From Alphaproteobacteria bacterium (GTDB taxonomy: Bacteria > Pseudomonadota > Alphaproteobacteria > GCA-2731375), in contig JAJFGG010000010.1 of the NCBI GenBank assembly GCA_021776235.1, positions 10,478-74,477 of the forward strand: a stretch of DNA of 64,000 bases, read 5' to 3'. Positions 43,101 through 59,188 of the stretch are shown piece by piece (position 1 is the first letter of the stretch; every line of letters begins with the position of its first letter). The translations under genes and the position numbers were made by a program. The notes under the pieces were generated by a model. That model saw only the letters and a list, made by a program, of their open reading frames with translations. It had not been told where the DNA came from and did no database searches.

Positions 43101-45827
43101 ATGAGCACAGCAGCGACGGCGGGGACTGACAAGCCGACGCCCATGATGGAACAGTTCCTGGCGATAAAGGCGCAGTACGACGATTGTCTGCTGTTCTACC
43201 GCATGGGCGACTTCTATGAGATGTTTTTTGATGACGCGGTCAAGGCGGCCGAGGCCCTGGATATTGCCCTGACTAAACGGGGCAGGCATCGGGGCGCCGA
43301 TATCCCCATGTGCGGCGTACCCGTACATGCCGCCGATAGTTATCTGGCGCGGCTGATCCGCAAGGGTTTCCGCGTCGCCGTGTGCGAGCAGACGGAGGAC
43401 CCGTCGGAAGCGAAAAAGCGCGGCGGCAAAACCGTGGTCCGGCGCGCCGTGGTGCGCCTGGTGACGCCGGGCACCTTGACCGAGGAAACCTTGCTGGACG
43501 CCCGCGCCAACAATTATCTCGCCGTCCTGGCCCGGGTACGGGGCGCCAATGCCCTGGCCTGGCTGGACCTGTCCACGGCGGAGTTCCTGACCGCGCGGGT
43601 TGATACCGGGGCGATTGCCTCTGAACTGGCCCGCCTGTCGCCGGGGGAACTGGTGGTTTCGGATGCCCTGCTGGCGGCCCCCGAGGCCGAGCCGGGGGGC
43701 GGCGAATGGCGCCAGGACTGGGCTGACCGGATCACGCCCTATGCCGACGCGCGCTTTGATTCAGGCTCGGGCGAAAGACGCCTGCAAGCCTTGTACAAGG
43801 TCGCAGCCCTGGATGCCTTTGGTGATTTCAGCCGGGCCGAATTGGCGGCCTGCGGCGCCCTGGTGGAATATCTGGAAATGACCCAGGTGGGCCGCCTGCC
43901 CCGCCTATCGCCCCCGCGCCAGGTTGAAACCCGCGAGACCATGGCGATCGACCCCGCGACCCGGCGCAATCTGGAGCTGACCCGAACCCTTGCGGGCGAT
44001 ATTCCCGGCAGCCTGCTGGCCACCATCGACCGCACGGTGACAGGCGCCGGAGCCAGATTGTTGATCCAGCATCTTTCGGCGCCGCTGATGGCGCCCCAGG
44101 CGATCAACCGCCGCCTGGACATGGTCGACTATTTCATTGCCGGTGAACGCCTGCGCCAGGATTTGCGCGGCATTTTGCGCCAGGCTCCGGATATGGCGCG
44201 GTCCCTGGCCCGCCTGGGGCTGGAGCGCGGCGGGCCGCGGGATCTGGCCGCCATTCGCGATGGGCTGGCCGCGACCCATGGCTTGGGCCGGCTGTTGGCG
44301 GCAGCCGAACTGCCCCTGCCCCCGGACGGCATCATGGCGGCGGCCAGGGATCTGGGCCAACACGATACCCTGGTGGACGAACTGTCCAATGCCCTGGCCG
44401 CGGAACTGCCCTTGAGCAACCGGGATGGCGGCTTCATGGCGCCAGGTTACCGCCCCGACCTGGATGAATTACGCAGCCTGCGCGATGCCTCGCGCAAGCT
44501 GATTGTGGGCTTGGAGGCAGACTATCGCCGGCAGGCCGGGATCGACAACCTGAAGATCAAGCATAACCGGGTTCTGGGCTATTTCATCGAGGTTGCGGCC
44601 CGCCGCGCCGATGGCCTGATGGCGGCGCCTTTGAACGAGGTCTTTATCCATCGCCAGACCATGGCCAACGTGGTGCGCTTTTCCACCGTCGAACTGGGCG
44701 ATCTGGAACGTCGCATCGCCGAGAGCGCGGACAAGGCCCTGGCCCTGGAACTGGAATTATATTCCGAACTGGCGGCAGGCGTTTTGGCGCAGGCCACGGC
44801 CATCGGCCTGGCCGGCGGGGCCATGGCGGCTCTGGACGTCGCCGCCGCCAACGGTGAAATGGCCGCATCTGAACGTTTCTGCCGGCCCGTGGTGGACAAC
44901 AGCCAGGCCTTCCATATCGAGGGTGGCCGTCACCCGGTGGTCGAGGCGTCCCTGATGGCGCGCAACGAAGGCGCCTTTATCGCCAACGATTGCGTTTTGG
45001 GCGGCGAGGCGGGCGCTGGGACGGATGATGAAGCCCGGATCTGGCTGGTAACCGGCCCCAACATGGCAGGCAAGAGTACCTTTTTGCGGCAGAACGCGTT
45101 GATTGCCATTCTGGCCCAGATGGGCAGCTATGTCCCGGCCACCCGGGTTCGCATGGGGTCCGTGGACCGCCTGTTCAGCCGGGTCGGCGCGGCGGACGAT
45201 TTGGCGCGGGGGCGGTCCACCTTCATGGTGGAGATGGTGGAGGCCGCGGCAATTCTGAACCAGGCCTCGCCCCGGTCCCTGGTGATCCTGGACGAGATTG
45301 GCCGCGGCACGGCAACCTATGACGGCCTGTCCATCGCCTGGGCGGCGGTGGAACATCTGCACCAGGTGAATGGCTGCCGGGCCCTGTTCGCGACCCATTA
45401 TCACGAGCTGACCGCCCTGGCCGGCAAACTGGATGGCCTGGCCAATGTCACCATGCGGGTCAGGGAGTGGCAGGGCGATGTGGTCTTCCTGCACGAGGTC
45501 GCGCCCGGCGCCGCGGACCGTTCCTATGGCATCCAGGTCGCCAAACTGGCGGGGCTGCCCGCCTCGGTCATCGGGCGGGCCGAGGTGGTGCTGGCCGGCC
45601 TGGAAGATGGCGAGGCCCCCGGCCGCAATATCGGCCGCGAGGGCGCGGCCCGCCTGGCCGACGATCTGCCCCTGTTCGCCGCCACCCGGCCTACCTCGGG
45701 CAGCAGCAAAAAGCAAAACGAGCCATCCGCCCTGGAACAGGCCCTGGCCGACGTCCTACCCGACAACCTCAGCCCCCGCGAGGCCCTGGAGCTGATCTAT
45801 CGGTTGAAGGCCGCGGCGGAAGACTAA
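43101..45827 (+). CDS. mutS: DNA mismatch repair protein MutS
   Basis: 908 aa. N-terminus [34 protein letters not shown]. Walker [14 protein letters not shown]. Motif [23 protein letters not shown]. Confidence 0.95.
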
Positions 45828-45844: not shown

Positions 45845-46387
45845 ATGAAGGTACCAGCCGACGAAGTTATCCTTACTGATCGCTGCCGGCTACGGTACCC
45901 GGATGAGGCCGACATCCCGCATGTCTGGTCTGCCTCGCTTGTGCCTGGGTTCAACGACGGCTTGGCCTGGGAGCACCCCAAGAATGCCAAAGAGCTGGAG
46001 GCTAGGCTCAAGGAGACGAGGGAAGCCTGGGCCAAAGGCAGCGCCTATGCCTGGACAGCCGAATGCCCTGAAACCGGCAGCTTCATCGGCCGAATTGTCA
46101 TCCGCCGTGAGGACAAGCCAGGGGCATGGGCAATAGGTTACTGGATACACCCGGCGCACCAGGGAGCCGGCTATGCCACGGAAATCGCCTCGGCGATTGT
46201 GAATTTCGGATTTTGCCGGTTAGGCGCGACCGCCATTCGCGCGGCGCATGCCACCTGGAACGATGCCAGCGGGAAGGTTCTGCAACGTATCGGCATGAGA
46301 TTCGTAGGCTCCAATCCAAAGGGCTTTCAAAAACGCGGCAAATGGGTGGAGGAGTACGAATACGAAATCCACCCTACACCGCGGTGA
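45845..46387 (+). CDS. GNAT-family N-acetyltransferase (RimJ/RimL-like)
   Basis: 180 aa. Acetyl-CoA binding region [27 protein letters not shown]. Confidence 0.85.
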
Positions 46388-46481
46388 TGCCGCCGTCGAC
46401 GACCAGTTCGGCGCCGGTGACGTGGCGGGCTTCGTCGGACGCCAGGAACAGGATGCAATTGGCCACGTCCACCGCCTGGGC
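46388..46481 (-). pseudogene. 94-bp duplicated fragment of the 3' end of the SDR gene at 51149-51961
   Basis: 46388-46481 matches 51163-51256 at 93 of 94 positions. It continues straight from the GNAT stop exactly as in the native GNAT'/SDR junction. Confidence 0.75.
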
Positions 46482-46967
46482 GGCGGTGGAGCATTTACAC
46501 CAGGTGAATGGCTGCCGGGCCCTGTTCGCGACCCATTATCACGAACTGACCGCCCTGGCCGGCTAATTGGATGGCTTGGCCAACGTCACCATGCGGGGCA
46601 GGGAATGGCAGGGCGATGTGGTCTTCCTGCACGAGGTCGCGCGCGGTGCCGCGGACCGTTCCTATGGCATCCAGGTCGCCAAGCTGGCGGGACTGCCCCC
46701 TTCGGTCATCGGCCGGGCCGAGGTGGTGCTGGCCAGCCTGGAAGATGATGAGGCTTTCGGCTGCAATGGCGGCCGCGAAGGCGCGGCCCGGCTGGCGGAT
46801 GACCTACCTCTGTTCGCCGCCACCCGGCCGACCTCGGGCAGCAGTAAAAGCCGCAACGAGCCGTCGGCCATGGAACAAGCCCTGGCCGACGTTCTGCCCG
46901 ATAGCCTCAGCCCCCGCGAGGCCCTGGACCTGATCTATCAATTGAAGGCAGCCGCAGAGCTAGATTG
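46474..46967 (+). pseudogene. diverged partial duplicate of the mutS 3' end (last ~160 codons) with in-frame stop
   Basis: About 90% nt identity to 45336-45830. The stop-interrupted copy decodes [52 protein letters not shown]... A TAA at ~46564 replaces the Lys codon. The fragment begins inside a microhomology shared with the SDR fragment. Confidence 0.85.
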
Positions 46968-47170
46968 ATTGGCATCGAAGCCAGTCTCTACACGATCCCG
47001 CAAGTTTCAAGCGTCACAGTGTTCGAAAATACACCACTCCTTCGAATGCTTAGCGAGTCTGAGCGCACAAACAATAGCCACCCCATAGCTAACCAATTGA
47101 ATCTATTCGACTAGCAATGAGGCAGTGATCGTAGCGTCCCCTTTCTCCACAAGATAGCATCAATGACAAG

Positions 47171-47470
47171 GTGCTGGTAACGGAACGGAGCGCCTCCTTT
47201 GGCCACAATATTTTAGTCTGTGATATGCGTACCATGCCGGTATTGAAAGGTTTGAGCCAACCGGTGGTGTTCGATGCCACCCATTCGGTGCAGCAGTCGG
47301 GCTGCCAGGGTGGCTCTCGGGCGGGCAACGGGGAATGGTGCCCGTGCTGGCCCGCGCCGCGGTTGCCATTGGGGTCGCGGCGTGCTTCATGGAAAGTCAT
47401 GAAGACCCCAGCAGTGTGCTTGCAAGGACACGGCGACATGACCTCACCAATCTGTGCGCGTCAACTAGTG
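47171..47470 (+). pseudogene. remnant of 3-deoxy-8-phosphooctulonate synthase gene (kdsA-like), 5'-truncated and frameshifted
   Basis: Frame 1 reads [41 protein letters not shown], matching the KdsA ...LCERG...VIFDVTHSLQ...GGxSGG region. After a frameshift, [21 protein letters not shown] matches the downstream KdsA ...ARAAVAxGxxGLFxExHPDP region. Confidence 0.6.
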
Positions 47471-48573
47471 TGACGCCGCGCCCACACCACCGGAAGTAAT
47501 GCAGAAATTATTGCAAATAACAAAAAATAGACCCCCAGCCCAGAACTAATAGCTAACCCATTTAATGGAGGACCGCACGCTGCACCAAAAAGTATAGCCG
47601 CCGTAAGACGCTGTCCAACAAATTGAGGGTTCGTTCTGGCAACTGATGCCTGCAGTTTCGCCGCCAATGTGTTGAATGTTAGCTCGAAACAAGTCAGTGC
47701 GAAAAAGAATATTATATTGCTTCGCGCCAAGTATATGACCAAGATGCTAACAGAAAGAATGAGACCCAGGATCAGAAATCCACTCTTTCTATCCTGGTGA
47801 CGCGTTCTTGACGCCGCATACAAAAGCCATGAACCGCTGACGAGCTTCATGCCAACAAGAGACCAAACCGTGCCTCCCACCGCCATACCATGGGCAACTG
47901 CATTTTCGACCAGAAAAGCGAGGAAACCAGTTTGGCCGGCAAACAGGACGAATACCACGAGTAGTCCGCTATATCGCGGACCATTCGGTGCGGCTCCGCT
48001 ATCTCTTGGGCTGTGGGTTGTAAAGGATTCTACTGGCTTATAAAAACTTAGACCTACAATCAACGCAATGGAAAACGAGAGTGATAGAAACAACACAGTC
48101 GATCCGTAGGATTCGAGCGCTTTGCCAATTTCGAGAATTGCCGCAACAACACCAGCCAACAGAAGAACTATAGCTAGGCGCAGCGTAAATGCAAATGCCT
48201 GACGACAATAATTTGACGCAACATAGATACCCAAGTACTGAAATAATCCACAACTTAAACCTGTGAGAAACCACCCAATATACAATACGAGCTCCGCATT
48301 GTACAGTGACACAGCCAACCCCAACAACAGCAACACCGCAGAAAAAAACGCTGTTCTCACTCCTATCGAGTGAATATTCGCTAATGGTAATAGCAGCGAT
48401 GTTAGAAGTTGGCCCCCCAATAGAAAGAAAGCAATCCACCCGGCTTTTGCTGCTGAAATTCCTAGACCAGTGGCAACAACATGAACAATTAGCGGCATTA
48501 AGTGTAATGGGAGAGATCCAACGGCCGATAATAAGCTAGCCGAAAGAAGATTTCCTAAACCCTTCGGCATCAT
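47461..48573 (-). CDS. polytopic membrane protein, possibly MFS-type transporter/exporter
   Basis: 370 aa. ~10-12 predicted hydrophobic helices. No diagnostic catalytic motif. Low GC relative to the flanks. Confidence 0.55.
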
Positions 48574-48866
48574 TTTATCAAATGCAACATTAACAGTTCT
48601 TGAGAGCTTGTTGGCGCTGTCCTCGGTAGGCTACAGTGTTCGCCAATCGTAAAAAAGGATGTAGTTCGAGACTTAGTTTGGTGCACTTGAACCTATGGCT
48701 ATCTGAGTAAAAGATGAATTGGCTAGCCTACTGGCGAATAGACATTCTTTTATTTACCTCTGGCCGTATGGAACTTCGGTCGATAGACAAAATAAGCAAC
48801 TGGCATGCACATGGGCCCGACATTTCCTTCTAACACACAAGTCGTGAACAATTCGATCTCATATGA

Positions 48867-49655
48867 CTAATTGTTATCAGTCTTGGATCGACGACGAGCA
48901 CTTACGCCATAAGACCCAGTCGTGTGATCATCAGCCTTTGGATCTGCGTCTCTAATTGTTTTACGGAAGCCGCTCCAATCGTCATTCGACATCTCAGCAA
49001 TTCCGTCGGGATTAGATTGATTTGTGTCAATGTTATTTCTGCCTAACGTCGCTTCAGAGTAACACTCTCTCCGTACTGGCTGAACTTGGAATAACGGTTT
49101 CCACTTCGAAATCGTAATTTCACGGTTAGTAGAGATCAGCCGTATATTAACAAAGAGGGGAAGGGGTTTAAAACGGTCAGTCTCGACGATGCCTTCATAA
49201 CAAGCAAAGCTGGTACTTTGCGGAAAATTGGCCAATGGACGTATGAGGACGCTCCAGTCTGAAACGGTACTTACGAACAATCCGGACCAGATTTGCACTA
49301 TACCAGGTACGAAAAGACACGACAGGTATGGTGGTGCTCGTCCCTGAAGGTCGACAGGTGCAAATTTATTCCACTGATCCAAAAATTCGTCCTCGAATTG
49401 TACCGATGACAATGCGCGCCAGTCATCTTCATGTCTATAAAAAACTTCAGAGCCGGTCCACATCAAACCAATATCAGTTGGTGGGAATACATACCAGCCG
49501 TAGGCAGAAGCCGTCCGCACTGGTTCACAATATTGATATGACGCAACCGGTAATGTTCCCAATGCGGATTTGTCGGCTCGCATGGGCGGGATTGCGTCCG
49601 GATAGATATTCTGAAATCTAACTATATTTTCCATGGAACTTCCAACCATCTTCAA
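48867..49655 (-). CDS. hypothetical protein (no recognisable domain)
   Basis: 262-aa ORF in the low-GC islet. Same orientation as the flanking genes, and the coding-like codon usage is consistent along its length. The probable start is the internal MENIVRF. Confidence 0.5.
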   Translation of the reverse strand: MKMVGSSMENIVRFQNIYPDAIPPMRADKSALGTLPVASYQYCEPVRTASAYGWYVFPPTDIGLMWTGSEVFYRHEDDWRALSSVQFEDEFLDQWNKFAPVDLQGRAPPYLSCLFVPGIVQIWSGLFVSTVSDWSVLIRPLANFPQSTSFACYEGIVETDRFKPLPLFVNIRLISTNREITISKWKPLFQVQPVRRECYSEATLGRNNIDTNQSNPDGIAEMSNDDWSGFRKTIRDADPKADDHTTGSYGVSARRRSKTDNN

Positions 49656-49680
49656 CCCCGCCCGAGAAATACTAATTCGT

Positions 49681-49941
49681 CTACGTTTTGCGGATGTGCG
49701 TCGCCACTCTAGGAGAGATTAAGCCTCCGCCTGTCTGTGTTCCTGTGGATGTTTTCGTGGTGGCAGTCTTCATGACACGCGCGTAGTGCGTCGCCACCTT
49801 CGGAGAGATAACTCCACCGCCTGTCTGTGTTTTTGCGGATGTTTTCGGGCCGGCGGCATTCGTGATGCGCGCATGGTGGGTTGCGACTTTTGGAGAGATA
49901 ACTCCTCCCCCTATTTGCGTCTTGGCTTTTTGCATCGTCAT
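49681..49941 (-). CDS. small internally repetitive protein (3 x ~28-aa repeats: TQ(I/T)GGG(V/L)ISP(K/R)VATH..)
   Basis: 86-aa ORF fully covered by three 84-bp tandem DNA repeats. The repeat phase preserves the reading frame. It is the first gene after the AT-rich region. Confidence 0.5.
   Translation of the reverse strand: MTMQKAKTQIGGGVISPKVATHHARITNAAGPKTSAKTQTGGGVISPKVATHYARVMKTATTKTSTGTQTGGGLISPRVATHIRKT
49690..49941. repeat. imperfect 84-bp tandem repeat, 3 copies
   Basis: Units start near 49690, 49774 and 49858. Each shares the core GTCGCCAC(C/T)T..GGAGAGAT(A/T)A(C/G)(T/C)CC(A/T)CC(G/C)CCTGTCTGTGT. Confidence 0.8.
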
Positions 49942-49944
49942 ACA

Positions 49945-50171
49945 CCTTCTCTATTGGTCCAAAGAACGCCTACTATAGGCAGTAAAAATATACCTTGAGT
50001 GAATCATAATTGCAATATTAAATTCGTATCTATTATTAGAATATTTTTATGAAAGTAATACTCTCAATTCACGTATAAATACATTATTGAGTTGTAAATC
50101 ATATTATTACTCTTATTTTATTTGACATAATGACAACTATATCTCTATTTTTGTGCATAAGTATTCGATAA
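49945..50171. promoter_or_regulatory. extremely AT-rich (~25% GC) intergenic block, putative divergent promoter / xenogeneic-silencing target
   Basis: About 230 bp of A/T runs (TATAAATACATTATTGAG, TTATTTTATTTGACATAATGAC) in an otherwise >60% GC genome. It sits upstream of the minus-strand three-gene islet operon and the plus-strand small ORF. Confidence 0.4.
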
Positions 50172-50417
50172 ATGAGCATTAATGGTATGTTAGGAAGCTG
50201 TTTTGAGAGTCGGGGCCGGAGATTACGCGGCGCAAATTTCTGCGATGATTTTGCACAATTTGTACCTCAACCACCTGAGGATCAGTCTAAAGTTGTAGCC
50301 ACCAGCGCTCATAATCGAATCATTGGCGTCACCCCGCACAATTGGGGTCAGCACAACTGGGATCTACCATCGAATTTTGAGGAATTCCGCTGCTGTTGTG
50401 CGGTGGGTATGTGGTGA
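50172..50417 (+). CDS. hypothetical small ORF (81 aa, Cys-rich C-terminus FRCCCAVGMW)
   Basis: An ORF only. It starts right at the edge of the AT-rich block. There is no motif support. Confidence 0.25.
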   Translation: MSINGMLGSCFESRGRRLRGANFCDDFAQFVPQPPEDQSKVVATSAHNRIIGVTPHNWGQHNWDLPSNFEEFRCCCAVGMW

Positions 50418-50519
50418 ACGCGCGATTGCGAGTTATCCACATATCCAGCGCTCACGATGCAAGATTGTTTATTCGTTTGCGGATGGCGGTTGTGGCGGTC
50501 GGGGTATAGGCTGTCACTG

Positions 50520-51162
50520 ACGGGAGTGTGGCTGCGCCCGCAATTTGGCGGCGGTGATGCCACCAGGCCTACGGCCAGTTCATGGCCGACGGGACGCGTG
50601 ACCGCGGCTTTGTTCTAGTCGATGGCTTGCAGGGGGCGGTGACGGCGGACAGTGTTCTGGGTGGGGAAGGCTGTCGCGCCGGCCTGCCGGCGCCTATTGC
50701 CAGGCGGGTAGCGAGGTGGTGAAGCGCCAGTGCCATCTGACCCGGCCCTCTCTGGCCGGCCTGCGTGCAGGGGCGGCGAGCAACGAGCGGACCTGGATGC
50801 AAGCGCAACAGGCGACGTCTATGCCCGGACCGCTAAGTCCCTATACACAAGCTTGTTCATAGGTCGAATTGTCACCCGCCGCGAGGGCAAACCAGGAGTC
50901 TGGCCAATCGGAGTCTGGATCCATCCAGAGCACCAGGGGAACGGCTATGCCACACAAAATTGCGTTCGCCCTCGTAGACTTCGGGTTTATGCGGCTGGGC
51001 GCCAGTGCCATTCGTGCCGCACACACGACCTGGAACGATGCAAGCCGGAAGGTTCTTCAACGCATCGGCATGAAATTCATCGGCATAAATTCAAAGGGTT
51101 TCCAAAAGCGCGGCACTTGGGTCGAGGAATACGGGTATGAAATCCGCCTCACAGCGCCGTAA
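50520..51162 (+). pseudogene. degraded second copy of the GNAT acetyltransferase gene (frameshifted; recognisable from ~50800)
   Basis: FIGRIVTRREGKPGVWPIGVWIHPEHQGNGYAT and [55 protein letters not shown] are ~80% nt identical to 46082-46387. Contains a 1-nt indel. The 3' end overlaps SDR-A convergently by 14 nt. The left boundary is uncertain. Confidence 0.65.
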
Positions 51163-51946
51163 TGCCGCCGTCGACGACCAGTTCGGCGCCGGTGACGTGG
51201 CGGGCTTCGTCGGACGCCAGGAACAGGATGCAGTTGGCCACGTCCACCGCCTGGGCCGGCTCGCCCATGGGGATGCGCCGGATCGAGGCCGCCAGGGCTT
51301 TCTCAGGGTCACCGCCGCCCATGCGCATGACCAGATCGCCCATGTCGGTCCGGATGGTGCCCGGATGCACGGAATTACAGCGGATGCCCAGGCCCTTGCG
51401 GGCGCAATCGATGGCCACGGATTTGCTCATCTGCCGCACCGCGCCTTTCGAGGCGCCGTAGGCCACCGCGCCGGGCGTGCCCACCAACCCGGCGATGGAG
51501 GACAAATTGACGATGGAACCGCCGCCCGCGCCGCCCTTCTCACGGCCGCCATCCGCGGTCATGGCCGCCACGCCATACTTGCAGCCCAGGAAGACACCTT
51601 CCACATTTACCGCCTGCACCGCGCGCCATTGTTCCAGGTCCGTCTGGTCCAGGAACTGATAGGGCGTGGTGGCAAGGATGCCTGCGTTGTTAATCAAAAT
51701 ATCCGGGCGGCCGTGGTGCGCGGCCACAGCCTGCATAATACGCTGCCAATCCGCTTCCTGGCGCACGTCCTGCTGCAAAAAGGCCGCCTTGCCGCTCAGT
51801 TCGTCAGCCACGGCCTGGCCCGCCTCGGTGTTCACGTCGGTGATGGTGACCATGGCGCCTTCTTCCGCCAGCAGGCGGGCCGTGGCCCGGCCTATGCCGG
51901 TGCCCCCGCCCGTTACAATGGCGACCTTGCCTTCGACCCGGCCCAT
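51149..51946 (-). CDS. SDR-family oxidoreductase (paralog A)
   Basis: TGGGTGIGRA cofactor motif. Catalytic YGASK. Start taken at MGRVEGK. The ORF track extends to 51961. Confidence 0.85.
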   Translation of the reverse strand: MGRVEGKVAIVTGGGTGIGRATARLLAEEGAMVTITDVNTEAGQAVADELSGKAAFLQQDVRQEADWQRIMQAVAAHHGRPDILINNAGILATTPYQFLDQTDLEQWRAVQAVNVEGVFLGCKYGVAAMTADGGREKGGAGGGSIVNLSSIAGLVGTPGAVAYGASKGAVRQMSKSVAIDCARKGLGIRCNSVHPGTIRTDMGDLVMRMGGGDPEKALAASIRRIPMGEPAQAVDVANCILFLASDEARHVTGAELVVDGGITAL

Positions 51947-51965
51947 CTGCAAACCTCCCAAAGGC

Positions 51966-52775
51966 CTAAATAGCTGTCATGCCGCCATCGACAACCAACT
52001 CGGCGCCGGTCACATGGCGAGCCTCGTCAGAGGCCAGGAACAAAATGCAATTCGCCACATCCACCGCCTGACCCGGTTCGCCCATGGGTATGACCTTGAT
52101 CCGGGCCGCCCATTTGGCGTCCGCATCGCCAGCGCCCAGGTTCATGACCTGATTACCCATATTTGTGACGATGACGCCCGGGTGCACGGAATTACAACGG
52201 ATGCCCAGGCCTTTGCGGGCGCAATCGATGGCCACGGACTTGGTCATCTGACGCACCGCGCCTTTCGAGGCGCCATAGGCCACCAGATGCGGCGTACTGA
52301 TCAGACCGGCGACGGACGACATATTGACGATGGCGCCGCCGCCGTCACCACCCCGAGGGCGTTTTTGGGCCCGGCCACTGTCGGCTGTCATGGCCGCCAC
52401 TCCATATTTGCAGCCCAGGAAGACACCTTCCACATTGACCGTCTGCACGGCCCGCCATTGCTCCATATCCGTATCGGCCAATTCCTGGCTGTTGCCAGTA
52501 GCCAGAATACCCGCGTTGTTGATCAGAATATCCGGGCGGCCGTGGCGTTCCGCGACCGCCGTCATCAGGTTTTGCCAGCTCGCCTCTTCCCGCACGTCAT
52601 GTCGTACAAAGGCCGCATCGCCGCCCAATTCAGCAACCACGGCCTGGCCGCTTTCGGCATCAAATTCCGCGATGGTGACAATAGCGCCTTCTTCCGCCAG
52701 GCGGGTGGCGGCAGCCCGGCCAATGCCCGTACCACCGCCCGTAACGATCGCAATTTTTCCCTCTACGCGGCCCAT
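51966..52775 (-). CDS. SDR-family oxidoreductase (paralog B, ~75% aa identity to A)
   Basis: TGGGTGIGRAAA and YGASK motifs. A 4-nt gap separates it from paralog A. Confidence 0.85.
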   Translation of the reverse strand: MGRVEGKIAIVTGGGTGIGRAAATRLAEEGAIVTIAEFDAESGQAVVAELGGDAAFVRHDVREEASWQNLMTAVAERHGRPDILINNAGILATGNSQELADTDMEQWRAVQTVNVEGVFLGCKYGVAAMTADSGRAQKRPRGGDGGGAIVNMSSVAGLISTPHLVAYGASKGAVRQMTKSVAIDCARKGLGIRCNSVHPGVIVTNMGNQVMNLGAGDADAKWAARIKVIPMGEPGQAVDVANCILFLASDEARHVTGAELVVDGGMTAI

Positions 52776-57403: not shown

Positions 57404-59188
57404 TTAGGACTCATCTCCATTCTTCAGGCCTAAACGATAAAGCGATTCTATCGCCCGTACAGCGCGTACCTGAGAGGGTGTCCAACGCTGTATCCAGTGC
57501 TTGGGCGAAATCTCGTTTGGCTTAAAATCCATTCTGGAAATAACATTTCTGGCATCGGTGTCACGACCGAGTGCAGCATAGGTTGCAGCACGATACGCCT
57601 CCATGTTTGGCGCGTCAGGGCCGCCGATTAAGATATTACGTTCAAATGCAATGATCGCATCGTCATACCGCTGAATATTGTAATAGGCCATGCCAAGGAT
57701 ATTCAAATAAGGTGTCCCGGGCTCCAGAGGGTCCAGGCGAATGGCTTCCAACAAGGGCGAAATCGCTTCTTTCGATTTACCGGCAAACATCAACACACCG
57801 CCGAGCCATTGATGGGCGAGTGGATCGCCAGGATTAAGCGCTACTGCTCGACGAACTTGTTTTACGGCTAGGTCTGTTTTGCCGGACAATGCGTAAGCTA
57901 GGCCCAGCATCGCGTGGCCACTAGCGAAACCGTCATCGAGCTTTATCGCCCTTTCCGCTAACTCGATCGCCTTCTTTAAGTCGGATTCCAGTTGCGCCGA
58001 GTGTCTGAAAAGAACCATGTATGAGTGAACCTGGGACAAACCGGCATATCCGCCCGGGAAATCTGGCTCCAAGGCAATGACACGCTTATGGAGCGATCGT
58101 GAGGATTCCACACGGGCGCGTTCGTTTGGTGGATTTATTCCTACTGTCGCGCGACGCAACAAATCAATTGCTTGGTAGTTGCTCGTATTTCGAAGATAGA
58201 TTCGTTGGCTAACATCATCGTCGATAGTGACCGAAAGGGCACCAGCTATGCGTTCCGACAATCTGTCCTCCAATTCAAACAGATCGTTCGTTTGTCCCTC
58301 GAAGCGTTCGGCAAAAAGAGCTTCGGTGGTCTCGGTATCGATCAACTGGACACTGATCCGAACCCGGTCGGACTGGACTCCCAAAGATCCTCTGACCACG
58401 TGCGTGACGCCGTGGTTTATCCTTAGTACTTCCAAAGGGATGGCGTTTTTTGCGGCTGTTATTGAAGATCGGATCGCCATTACCGATAGACCTGATAACT
58501 TCGAGAGATTGGTTGTTACAGCGTCAAGATAACCTGTGGATATCCTGTCGGAAATCGCGCTACCCTCCAGCCCGGTTAGAGGTAAAACAACGATAAAAGG
58601 CTTGCTCCGAGAAATTGCGCCGGACTGCTCGAGTTTTTGATTGGCAGGCATTTTATCAGCGTACTGCGAAGTAAAAACTCCAGCCCCAAGGATCATATAA
58701 CCGACAGCCACAAGAAATCCCGCTGCGACAGCGATGGACACAACAATGCGTAAACTCAGATTAGGATTTCCTCTGGCCCCAGGAAGAAATTTAACAAAAG
58801 CGTTCGCCTGAGGGCCATCGGGTGGATGTTCTGACTTTAAAAACCGGGGAACATAGGAGCCGGAGATCATTTCTATGTGTACTGGGTCGTCCCTTCCGGA
58901 TGTCAAATAATAATGGCTGAGTTTCCGACGAAGCCTCGCAGCGGTTACCCGAACAATCGAGTCGACACTCGCCCCCTCTTCCGCACCGCGTTTAAATACG
59001 TCTAAGGCAATTGTTGTCGCTTTAATACCATCCGATCTCCCTTCGAGCGCTTCTTCAACGATGTATTGTAAGAAGCCGGATAATCTGGCCGTACCTTGAA
59101 ACTCGTCACTTCTCAATACGCGCTCAAGGGCATTTCTAACCTCTGTCACGGTTACATTTGATTGCGTATCGTTTTCAGATTCAAGCAT
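57404..59188 (-). CDS. membrane-anchored transcriptional regulator: N-terminal winged-helix (OmpR/CadC-type) DNA-binding domain, one TM helix, C-terminal TPR repeats
   Basis: N-terminal VRNALERVLRSDEFQGTARLSGFLQYIVEEALEGRSDGIKATTIALDVF (trans_reg_C-like). Hydrophobic segment VVSIAVAAGFLVAVGYMILGAG. TPR-like A..Y...G repeats in the C-terminal half. Confidence 0.6.
   Translation of the reverse strand: MLESENDTQSNVTVTEVRNALERVLRSDEFQGTARLSGFLQYIVEEALEGRSDGIKATTIALDVFKRGAEEGASVDSIVRVTAARLRRKLSHYYLTSGRDDPVHIEMISGSYVPRFLKSEHPPDGPQANAFVKFLPGARGNPNLSLRIVVSIAVAAGFLVAVGYMILGAGVFTSQYADKMPANQKLEQSGAISRSKPFIVVLPLTGLEGSAISDRISTGYLDAVTTNLSKLSGLSVMAIRSSITAAKNAIPLEVLRINHGVTHVVRGSLGVQSDRVRISVQLIDTETTEALFAERFEGQTNDLFELEDRLSERIAGALSVTIDDDVSQRIYLRNTSNYQAIDLLRRATVGINPPNERARVESSRSLHKRVIALEPDFPGGYAGLSQVHSYMVLFRHSAQLESDLKKAIELAERAIKLDDGFASGHAMLGLAYALSGKTDLAVKQVRRAVALNPGDPLAHQWLGGVLMFAGKSKEAISPLLEAIRLDPLEPGTPYLNILGMAYYNIQRYDDAIIAFERNILIGGPDAPNMEAYRAATYAALGRDTDARNVISRMDFKPNEISPKHWIQRWTPSQVRAVRAIESLYRLGLKNGDES

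Follow-up and report, generated by a model that had tools for sequence, protein, structure and literature searches.

A tandem-repeat gene next to a DUF6065 gene in an alphaproteobacterium is a candidate multi-unit precursor of a RiPP-like pathway

Repeat-containing precursors with several cores are known from a number of RiPP systems, among them the cyanobactin precursor PatE, the graspetides plesiocin and microviridins, and the fungal dikaritin precursor UstA. In microcin C, an enzyme attaches a nucleotide to the peptide. The locus described here lies in a 64,000-nucleotide stretch of alphaproteobacterial DNA (the window) and is a minimal three-gene form of a wider cluster type, consisting of a candidate precursor gene made of tandem repeats, a gene for a DUF6065 protein, and a gene for a divergent MFS-type membrane protein (Table 1). 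We estimate a probability of roughly 60% that the repeat gene encodes a multi-unit precursor (or substrate) of a RiPP-like pathway and heads a unit of three genes on a horizontally acquired low-GC island.

The ORF list contains an ORF of 86 codons, from ATG to TAG, at positions 49681-49941. The coordinates given by the first-pass annotation are exact, with the addition that the gene lies on the minus strand. The complete protein is MTMQKAKTQIGGGVISPKVATHHARITNAAGPKTSAKTQTGGGVISPKVATHYARVMKTATTKTSTGTQTGGGLISPRVATHIRKT, and the same gene is called on a public contig that is identical to the window locus. A second ATG at 49935 (MQKAK...) is better spaced from the Shine-Dalgarno-like AGAAGG than the first, and this start agrees with the MQK or MKK starts of the orthologues.

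The ORF repeats in frame with a period of 90 nt (30 aa). Its self-identity is 67% at lag 90 and 20–33% at every other lag from 60 to 120, which places the repeat well above chance. The 84-nt period proposed there is replaced by this one, since lag 84 yields an identity of only 23%. Tandem Repeats Finder reports the array at 49696-49912 with a period of 90, 2.4 copies, 77% matches and no indels, and a separate repeat search pairs 49696-49785 with 49786-49875 at 77% identity. The array is composed of two full 90-nt units and an incomplete third of 57 nt that ends at the stop codon, rather than of three full units; the three unit peptides themselves had been quoted correctly. Each unit starts with a 17-aa module, TQxGGGxISPxVATHxA, which is followed by a variable linker of 13 codons. 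No leader peptide or signal peptide is detectable in the window's 86-aa protein.

Table 1. Coordinates of the features of the repeat locus, as positions in the window
Feature	Positions	Strand	Basis
Repeat gene, candidate multi-unit precursor peptide (86 aa)	49681..49941	-	ORF list, public gene call, homologous ORFs upstream of DUF6065
Unit 1, 30 codons: module TQIGGGVISPKVATHHA (49870-49920) and linker RITNAAGPKTSAK	49831..49920	-	Lag identity, codon comparison
Unit 2, 30 codons: module TQTGGGVISPKVATHYA (49780-49830) and linker RVMKTATTKTSTG	49741..49830	-	Lag identity, codon comparison
Unit 3, truncated, 19 codons: TQTGGGLISPRVATHIRKT; stop codon 49681-49683	49684..49740	-	Lag identity, codon comparison
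Unit peptide as 19-mer: TQTGGGVISPKVATHYARV			
DUF6065 protein, candidate peptide-modifying or peptide-processing enzyme	48867..49655	-	Pfam PF19541, AlphaFold2, Foldseek
370-aa polytopic membrane protein, divergent MFS-type, candidate exporter	47461..48573	-	Clusters with ORFs directly downstream of DUF6065
AT-rich upstream region (36% GC), likely promoter of the three-gene unit	49942..50200	-	Consensus promoter matches, Shine-Dalgarno-like AGAAGG
Left imperfect direct repeat, 3' end of GNAT gene	46021..46481		Repeat search, GC profile
Right direct repeat, 71-82% identical to the left; holds GNAT fragment 50869-51162	50795..51256		Repeat search, Pfam

A codon comparison of units 1 and 2 reveals two parts that evolve differently. 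In the module (the first 17 codons), 10 differences are synonymous and 2 are non-synonymous, and the dN/dS between the units, a calculation that the first-pass annotation had proposed, is about 0.02. This synonymous excess points to strong purifying selection on the protein module. In the linker (13 codons), by contrast, 2 differences are synonymous and 10 are non-synonymous. The description of the differences as mostly conservative thus holds for the module and fails for the linker. The small gene is real and is under purifying selection.

A word-index protein search with the 86-aa protein retrieved no homologue, so that the repeat family is visible only through the neighboring enzyme. We examined the best 80 DUF6065 genomic loci from GTDB species representatives. 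These loci come from alpha-, beta- and gamma-proteobacteria, with Polaromonas, Variovorax, Rhodoferax, Bradyrhizobium, Bosea, Nisaea, Roseomonas, Sulfurifustis and numerous MAGs among them, and the DUF6065 carriers come from soil, freshwater and the sea. In 71 of the 80 loci, a co-oriented ORF just upstream of DUF6065 contains 2-15 tandem units of a related motif, where a repeat ORF was defined by an internal-repeat score of at least 9 of 14; this score is reached by 2.6% of the other six-frame segments. No repeat ORF is found in 8 or 9 of the loci, two of which are contigs cut just upstream of DUF6065. A median of 82 nt separates the precursor stop from the DUF6065 match, and 60 of 67 such gaps are shorter than 150 nt.

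A profile HMM of the unit, iterated to convergence, gives significant matches in 33 loci, all of them upstream of DUF6065 except for one orphan unit; this specificity for the DUF6065 neighborhood was assessed within the 80 loci. Against the 64-kb window, the profile matches a single site, the repeat ORF itself. Scans of JGI metagenome contigs with the precursor and with a three-sequence alignment yielded degenerate pattern matches, none of which was confirmed by tblastn. The gene pair of repeat ORF and DUF6065 is conserved together with its neighbors. Together with the low dN/dS of the module, the recurrence of frame and motif upstream of DUF6065 and the restriction of the profile matches to that position support the earlier proposal that selection acts on the protein and not on a non-coding repeat.

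In the clade of the window (88 units from 21 loci), the consensus is V-Q-M-G-[GSA]-G-X-I-S-P-x-V-K-A-H-L-[QA]-K-K, with T also found at position 1; a more general form for this clade is V/T-Q-Φ-G-G-G-X-I-S-P-x-V-x-x-H. G4 (87/88), G6 (88/88), I8 (83/88), P10 (87/88) and H15 (86/88) are nearly invariant. Position 7 is hypervariable and is occupied by L, W, I, V, F, A and others. Basic residues follow His15, and K, R and H are abundant throughout the units. In distant clades a reduced core, Φ-G-x-G-x-x-x-P, is observed, as in VRYGAGSAPRVVR, GKVRLGGQSPSLP and VEVGNGAIAPKVALHR. Species differ in the number of units (2 to 15) and in the period (17 to about 30 aa). Dibasic linkers are seen in the Polaromonas precursors, and a conserved N-terminal stretch of the precursor is seen only in a two-unit Burkholderiales subtype.

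Some loci depart from the simple arrangement. The Polaromonas aquatica chromosome (L005:4677-8433) carries two tandem pairs of precursor and DUF6065 genes, separated by an MFS gene; one precursor has 4 units and the other 10. The orphan single unit, VHFGGGWVSPPDVKEHVRQ, is located at L014:8715-8957 on the minus strand, about 3 kb from the 11-unit main precursor and on the opposite strand from it. In one protein (P0164), a unit-like sequence, GRIRFGAAAAKPP, is in frame with the DUF6065 domain, as a natural fusion or through a mis-called start.

The DUF6065 gene of the window follows the repeat gene on the same strand after 25-46 nt. It encodes 262 aa from a TTG start, while public calls begin at M3 or M8 (260 or 255 aa), and the protein matches PF19541 with an E-value of 3.4e-10 and 40.3 bits (cut-off 26.6). 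A protein search finds 375 homologues, and an exhaustive HMM search gives 625 clusters at 50% identity. A full-text literature search, to which most papers in subscription journals are external, returned no mention of DUF6065, PF19541 or such a cluster. NCBIfam holds no model for the precursor, the DUF6065 enzyme or the transporter.

Two independent AlphaFold2 models of DUF6065 were obtained, from 26 sequences (mean pLDDT 72) and from 95 sequences (pLDDT 85.5, pTM 0.80). For both models, only trimeric dUTPases are among the PDB matches listed by Foldseek, with a probability of 1.00, a TM-score of up to 0.75 on the target, an rmsd of about 3 Å over ~120 residues and an identity of 9-11%. The models thus show a predicted dUTPase-like beta-barrel, whose core matches the trimeric dUTPase/dCTP deaminase superfamily. 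At the sequence level, the protein has no match to the Pfam dUTPase family (PF00692) at E-values up to 1, a sequence-profile search of the PDB matched no chain at E-values up to 10, and an hhalign comparison with E. coli Dut is not significant (probability 0.1%). By eye, the DUF6065 blocks 134-143, 154-162 and 187-193 are similar in order and spacing to dUTPase motifs II-IV, and EGIVETD (154-160) looks like GLIDSDY of E. coli Dut, a likeness to which alignment tools gave no support. DUF6065 differs from the dUTPases by some 110 extra residues, by an invariant Cys that they lack and by the absence of their glycine-rich C-terminal motif V.

Invariant or near-invariant polar residues in 80 DUF6065 sequences are D28, C43, Q121, N143, E154, E158, D160, N170, T176, Q190 and R254. 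Cys43 is present in 80 of 80 and in 95 of 95 sequences and has a conserved acidic residue next to it. No His is conserved across the 80 sequences, and a Pfam scan reveals no RRE-like recognition domain. In one distant family member (P0242), a DUF6817/HD_4-like domain of phosphohydrolase type is fused to DUF6065.

The third gene encodes a membrane protein without a match in a Pfam scan. In 13-15 other loci, the ORF that immediately follows DUF6065 falls into one cluster with this protein, and 4 of 12 members of this transporter family match MFS_1 (best E-value 6.9e-8). Across the 80 loci, the gene directly downstream of DUF6065 belongs to EamA in 30 and to the divergent MFS family in 13, with 5 more within 5 kb. 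Several of the remaining loci have further ORFs of an MFS- or EamA-like type at this place, and about one third of the 80 have neither transporter family. The spacer between the DUF6065 and MFS genes of the window (48574-48866) is unusually long, at 293 nt. Orthologous MFS proteins of two related loci (L082 and L084) have 20-25 additional N-terminal residues and gaps of less than 80 nt, and the window transporter may therefore be 5'-truncated or mis-started.

Fuller clusters are found in close relatives. In L082 (65% identity), the co-oriented genes encode, in order, a cyclase-TPR regulator, a PAP2 enzyme, a 158-aa protein, an S8 subtilase without a signal peptide, a 3-unit precursor, DUF6065, the MFS protein and a Crp-type regulator. 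The PAP2-superfamily enzyme is soluble, and our own inspection finds its KX6RP, PSGH and RX5HX3D motifs intact. L084 (58% identity) has the same layout, with a Peptidase_A4 protein (E-value 4e-29) in place of the subtilase, and the Polaromonas and Rhodoferax loci also contain S8 and PAP2 genes. The soluble PAP2 proteins of L082:2091-3320, L084:5158-6150 and L005:1623-2732 start with Gly-rich tandem repeats (GGA x13, VGN x6 and GGVSG x7, respectively). The PAP2 genes and the HD_4-like fusion hint faintly that the chemistry may involve phosphate groups or nucleotides. In the window, no peptidase, PAP2 or adjoining regulator gene is present near the cluster. PADLOC gives no defense-system match in the region and has no model for any of the three cluster proteins.

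TPR regulators, counted from a length of 300 aa upward, occur in 53 of the 80 loci and are 600-850 aa in size. These regulators share a conserved C-terminal part with TolB-like and TPR regions, and their N-terminus is a class III cyclase, a cNMP-binding/Crp-HTH region with a cyclase, or a BTAD domain. In NCBIfam they match HilA/EilA and TIGR04510 weakly and at the level of domains. The latter, named "putative peptide modification system cyclase", and the SARP/BTAD-TPR regulators resemble the present system in that a class III cyclase or BTAD domain combined with TPR is located near most DUF6065 clusters, an architecture that NCBIfam already links to a putative peptide-modification system. The resemblance to TIGR04510 is confined to the domain level, at 24 bits against a cut-off of 400, and the window has no adjoining regulator. 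The nearest related protein in the window is encoded 8 kb from the cluster, at 57404-59188 on the minus strand. It has 594 aa, with one predicted membrane helix followed by TolB-like and TPR regions, and is 24-26% identical to the DUF6065-linked regulators; its gene is part of another low-GC segment (49% GC, at 58-60 kb).

The three genes of the window occupy a stretch with 43-50% GC, compared with 60-69% in the flanks. The stretch is bounded by imperfect direct repeats and contains a second copy of the mutS 3' end (46467-46766, 92% identical to 45329-45628), together with fragments of a MutS_V ORF (46567-46968), a DAHP-synthase-family gene (47171-47473) and a GNAT gene. This island, 46021-51256, looks like a horizontally acquired segment, with foreign DNA that brought along a mutS-GNAT junction of its own and was apparently inserted by recombination. 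The island is adjoined by a tandem pair of short-chain dehydrogenase paralogues (51149-51961 and 51966-52775, minus strand; 73-84% identical in DNA). Since the peptidase, PAP2 and regulator genes of the relatives are missing and the island is full of pseudogene fragments, the copy in the window could be reduced or inactive, a remnant on a decayed island. A 3.6-kb scan for sigma-70-like promoters gave 9 sites against 5.4 expected in shuffles, and four of the 9 fall ahead of the repeat gene, at 50067-49987 on the minus strand. These matches point weakly to a likely promoter of the three-gene unit; no Crp-type operator was found in this region.

The multi-unit precursor reading brings these elements together as follows. 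The precursor would be a small, leaderless protein in which each unit combines a conserved module of ~17 aa with a linker that is free to vary. DUF6065, as a dUTPase-fold protein with the invariant Cys43 and the conserved Glu154, Glu158 and Asp160, would recognize each module and modify or excise it. The linkers would then be cut by a peptidase, which in close relatives may be the cytoplasmic S8 subtilase or A4 peptidase of the cluster and in the window genome would have to be a housekeeping protease. The small product would leave the cell by the MFS transporter, or by EamA in other genomes, and in most relatives the cluster-linked TolB-like and TPR regulator would control or sense the system. 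Action on the peptide, release of the units, export of the product and all details of the chemistry are inferred.

As in RiPP clusters, a short precursor gene adjoins a conserved candidate tailoring enzyme in the same orientation. Of the exporter and protease that such clusters encode, the window has a candidate exporter and no peptidase; peptidase genes occur in the L082, L084 and Polaromonas clusters. The nearly invariant positions and the hypervariable position 7 of each unit might correspond to the recognition and variable parts of RiPP precursors; the window peptide has no separate N-terminal leader, and DUF6065 no RRE-like domain. The suggestion of the first-pass annotation that each unit might be a separately released core peptide would fit the comparative picture, in which the unit number varies, the linkers are variable and in some cases dibasic, and S8 or A4 peptidases and exporters are encoded nearby. 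On the other side stand the missing leader and RRE-type domain, the reduced gene set of the window, the 8 or 9 loci without a repeat ORF and the third of loci without either transporter family. The usual cargo of MFS and EamA transporters is small molecules, among which a product of 17-30 aa would be exceptional. We also know of no precedent for the dUTPase fold as a peptide-modifying enzyme or in RiPP biosynthesis, and DUF6065 could therefore act on something else.

Phage dUTPases are known targets of repressor proteins, and the PDB matches of DUF6065 include dUTPase-Stl repressor complexes (6h4c and 8p8o), so that this fold can be regulated by protein partners. The product of the repeat gene could accordingly be an intact, very basic, disordered intracellular protein that binds or regulates DUF6065 through its modules, as a multivalent inhibitor, scaffold or substrate mimic, while the transporter and the regulators serve a small-molecule function. 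The basic composition of the units, the lack of a leader, signal peptide or cluster peptidase in the window and the usual cargo of the transporters are compatible with such a role, and the HD-like fusion hints at nucleotide metabolism. We nevertheless consider it unlikely, at about one chance for every few given to the precursor reading. Between 2 and 15 units, free linkers and a hypervariable position inside the module are typical of multi-core precursors and unexpected for a stoichiometric partner. The recruitment of two peptidase families to the same position in close relatives and the dibasic linkers of Polaromonas also speak against an intact binding protein.

The strict conservation of Cys43 and its acidic neighbor raises the question of whether DUF6065 is itself a Cys-dependent peptidase or transpeptidase, which would excise and perhaps cyclize the modules without tailoring, giving an unmodified or head-to-tail cyclized product. 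Precursor, one enzyme and exporter would then suffice, as in the window and many other loci. This reading is improbable, since DUF6065 has no conserved His or other classical partner of a Cys protease, its fold matches no known peptidase, and the separate S8 and A4 peptidases of close relatives would be redundant.

A more specific form of the precursor reading concerns the chemistry. In principle, a dUTPase-fold enzyme could attach a nucleotide as in microcin C. With a nucleotide triphosphate as donor, the DUF6065 enzyme might transfer a nucleotidyl or phosphoryl group to the invariant Ser-Pro or His of each module; in fuller clusters, PAP2 phosphatases or an HD-like domain would then trim the attached group. 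The short product, once released, would be exported by MFS or EamA and sensed by the TolB-like/TPR cyclase or transcription regulators, and DUF6065 would define a new class of ribosomal peptide natural product. The logic of such a peptide-based signaling circuit in Proteobacteria would be analogous to that of the TPR-receptor peptide systems of Firmicutes. We regard this scheme as speculative and give it little credence as a whole.

The first-pass annotation had also suggested that the repeat number could vary between strains in a contingency-like manner. In a contingency locus, slippage in the tandem repeat would alter the protein from strain to strain. The tandem repeat does lie inside a coding region, and the number of units differs between species. 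At the DNA level, however, the units are only 60-76% identical, with dS from 0.55 to above 2, and no long identical tract is available for slippage. Synonymous sites are near saturation, which indicates an old duplication, and a period that is a multiple of three would not switch the frame. The only other copy of the window locus that was found (L081) is 100% identical. A contingency locus is thus very improbable. That the ORF is a chance reading of a non-coding repeat or a structured RNA, an idea prompted by the overlapping ORFs at 49709-49945 (minus strand) and 49786-49998 (plus strand), is refuted, as far as computation reaches, by the frame-specific conservation pattern, by the encoding of the same peptide motif in diverged DNA of more than 70 genomes, and by an Rfam scan of the region that gave no family match and only two sub-threshold chance matches.

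If the precursor reading is correct, the locus represents a widespread, uncharacterized peptide-maturation system, for which the 625 DUF6065 clusters (50% identity) extend over alpha-, beta- and gamma-proteobacteria and whose key enzyme would have a fold not known to be tied to peptide chemistry. Its precursors would carry 2-15 cassettes, each with one built-in hypervariable position. A Pfam DUF would gain a function, and RiPP genome-mining tools, which now miss these clusters, would gain an enzyme class. The link to cyclase/TPR regulators might in addition reveal peptide signaling in Gram-negative bacteria.

Compared with the multi-core RiPP precursors (PatE, plesiocin and microviridins, UstA), the repeat gene shares the tandem short motifs, the variable linkers and the variable copy number. 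As in those systems, the precursor gene adjoins a presumed enzyme gene, peptidases and exporters are found nearby, and some linkers are dibasic. The window precursor differs from them in having no N-terminal leader, and its partner enzyme is the DUF6065 protein with its predicted dUTPase fold. Pfam scans of the window genes and of the neighbors in the related loci detect no PatA/PatG protease, ATP-grasp ligase or UstYa/DUF3328 protein. Microcin C (mccABC) and pantocin A (paaPABC) provide a parallel for the size of the cluster, with a short precursor, one or two enzymes and an MFS pump for a small peptide-derived product; the precursor described here is repetitive and much longer, and a Pfam scan finds no ThiF/MccB-like or PaaA-like enzyme in the window cluster. 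The system resembles multi-core and minimal MFS-linked RiPP clusters in its logic, without their defining enzymes, and is a candidate for a new RiPP class.
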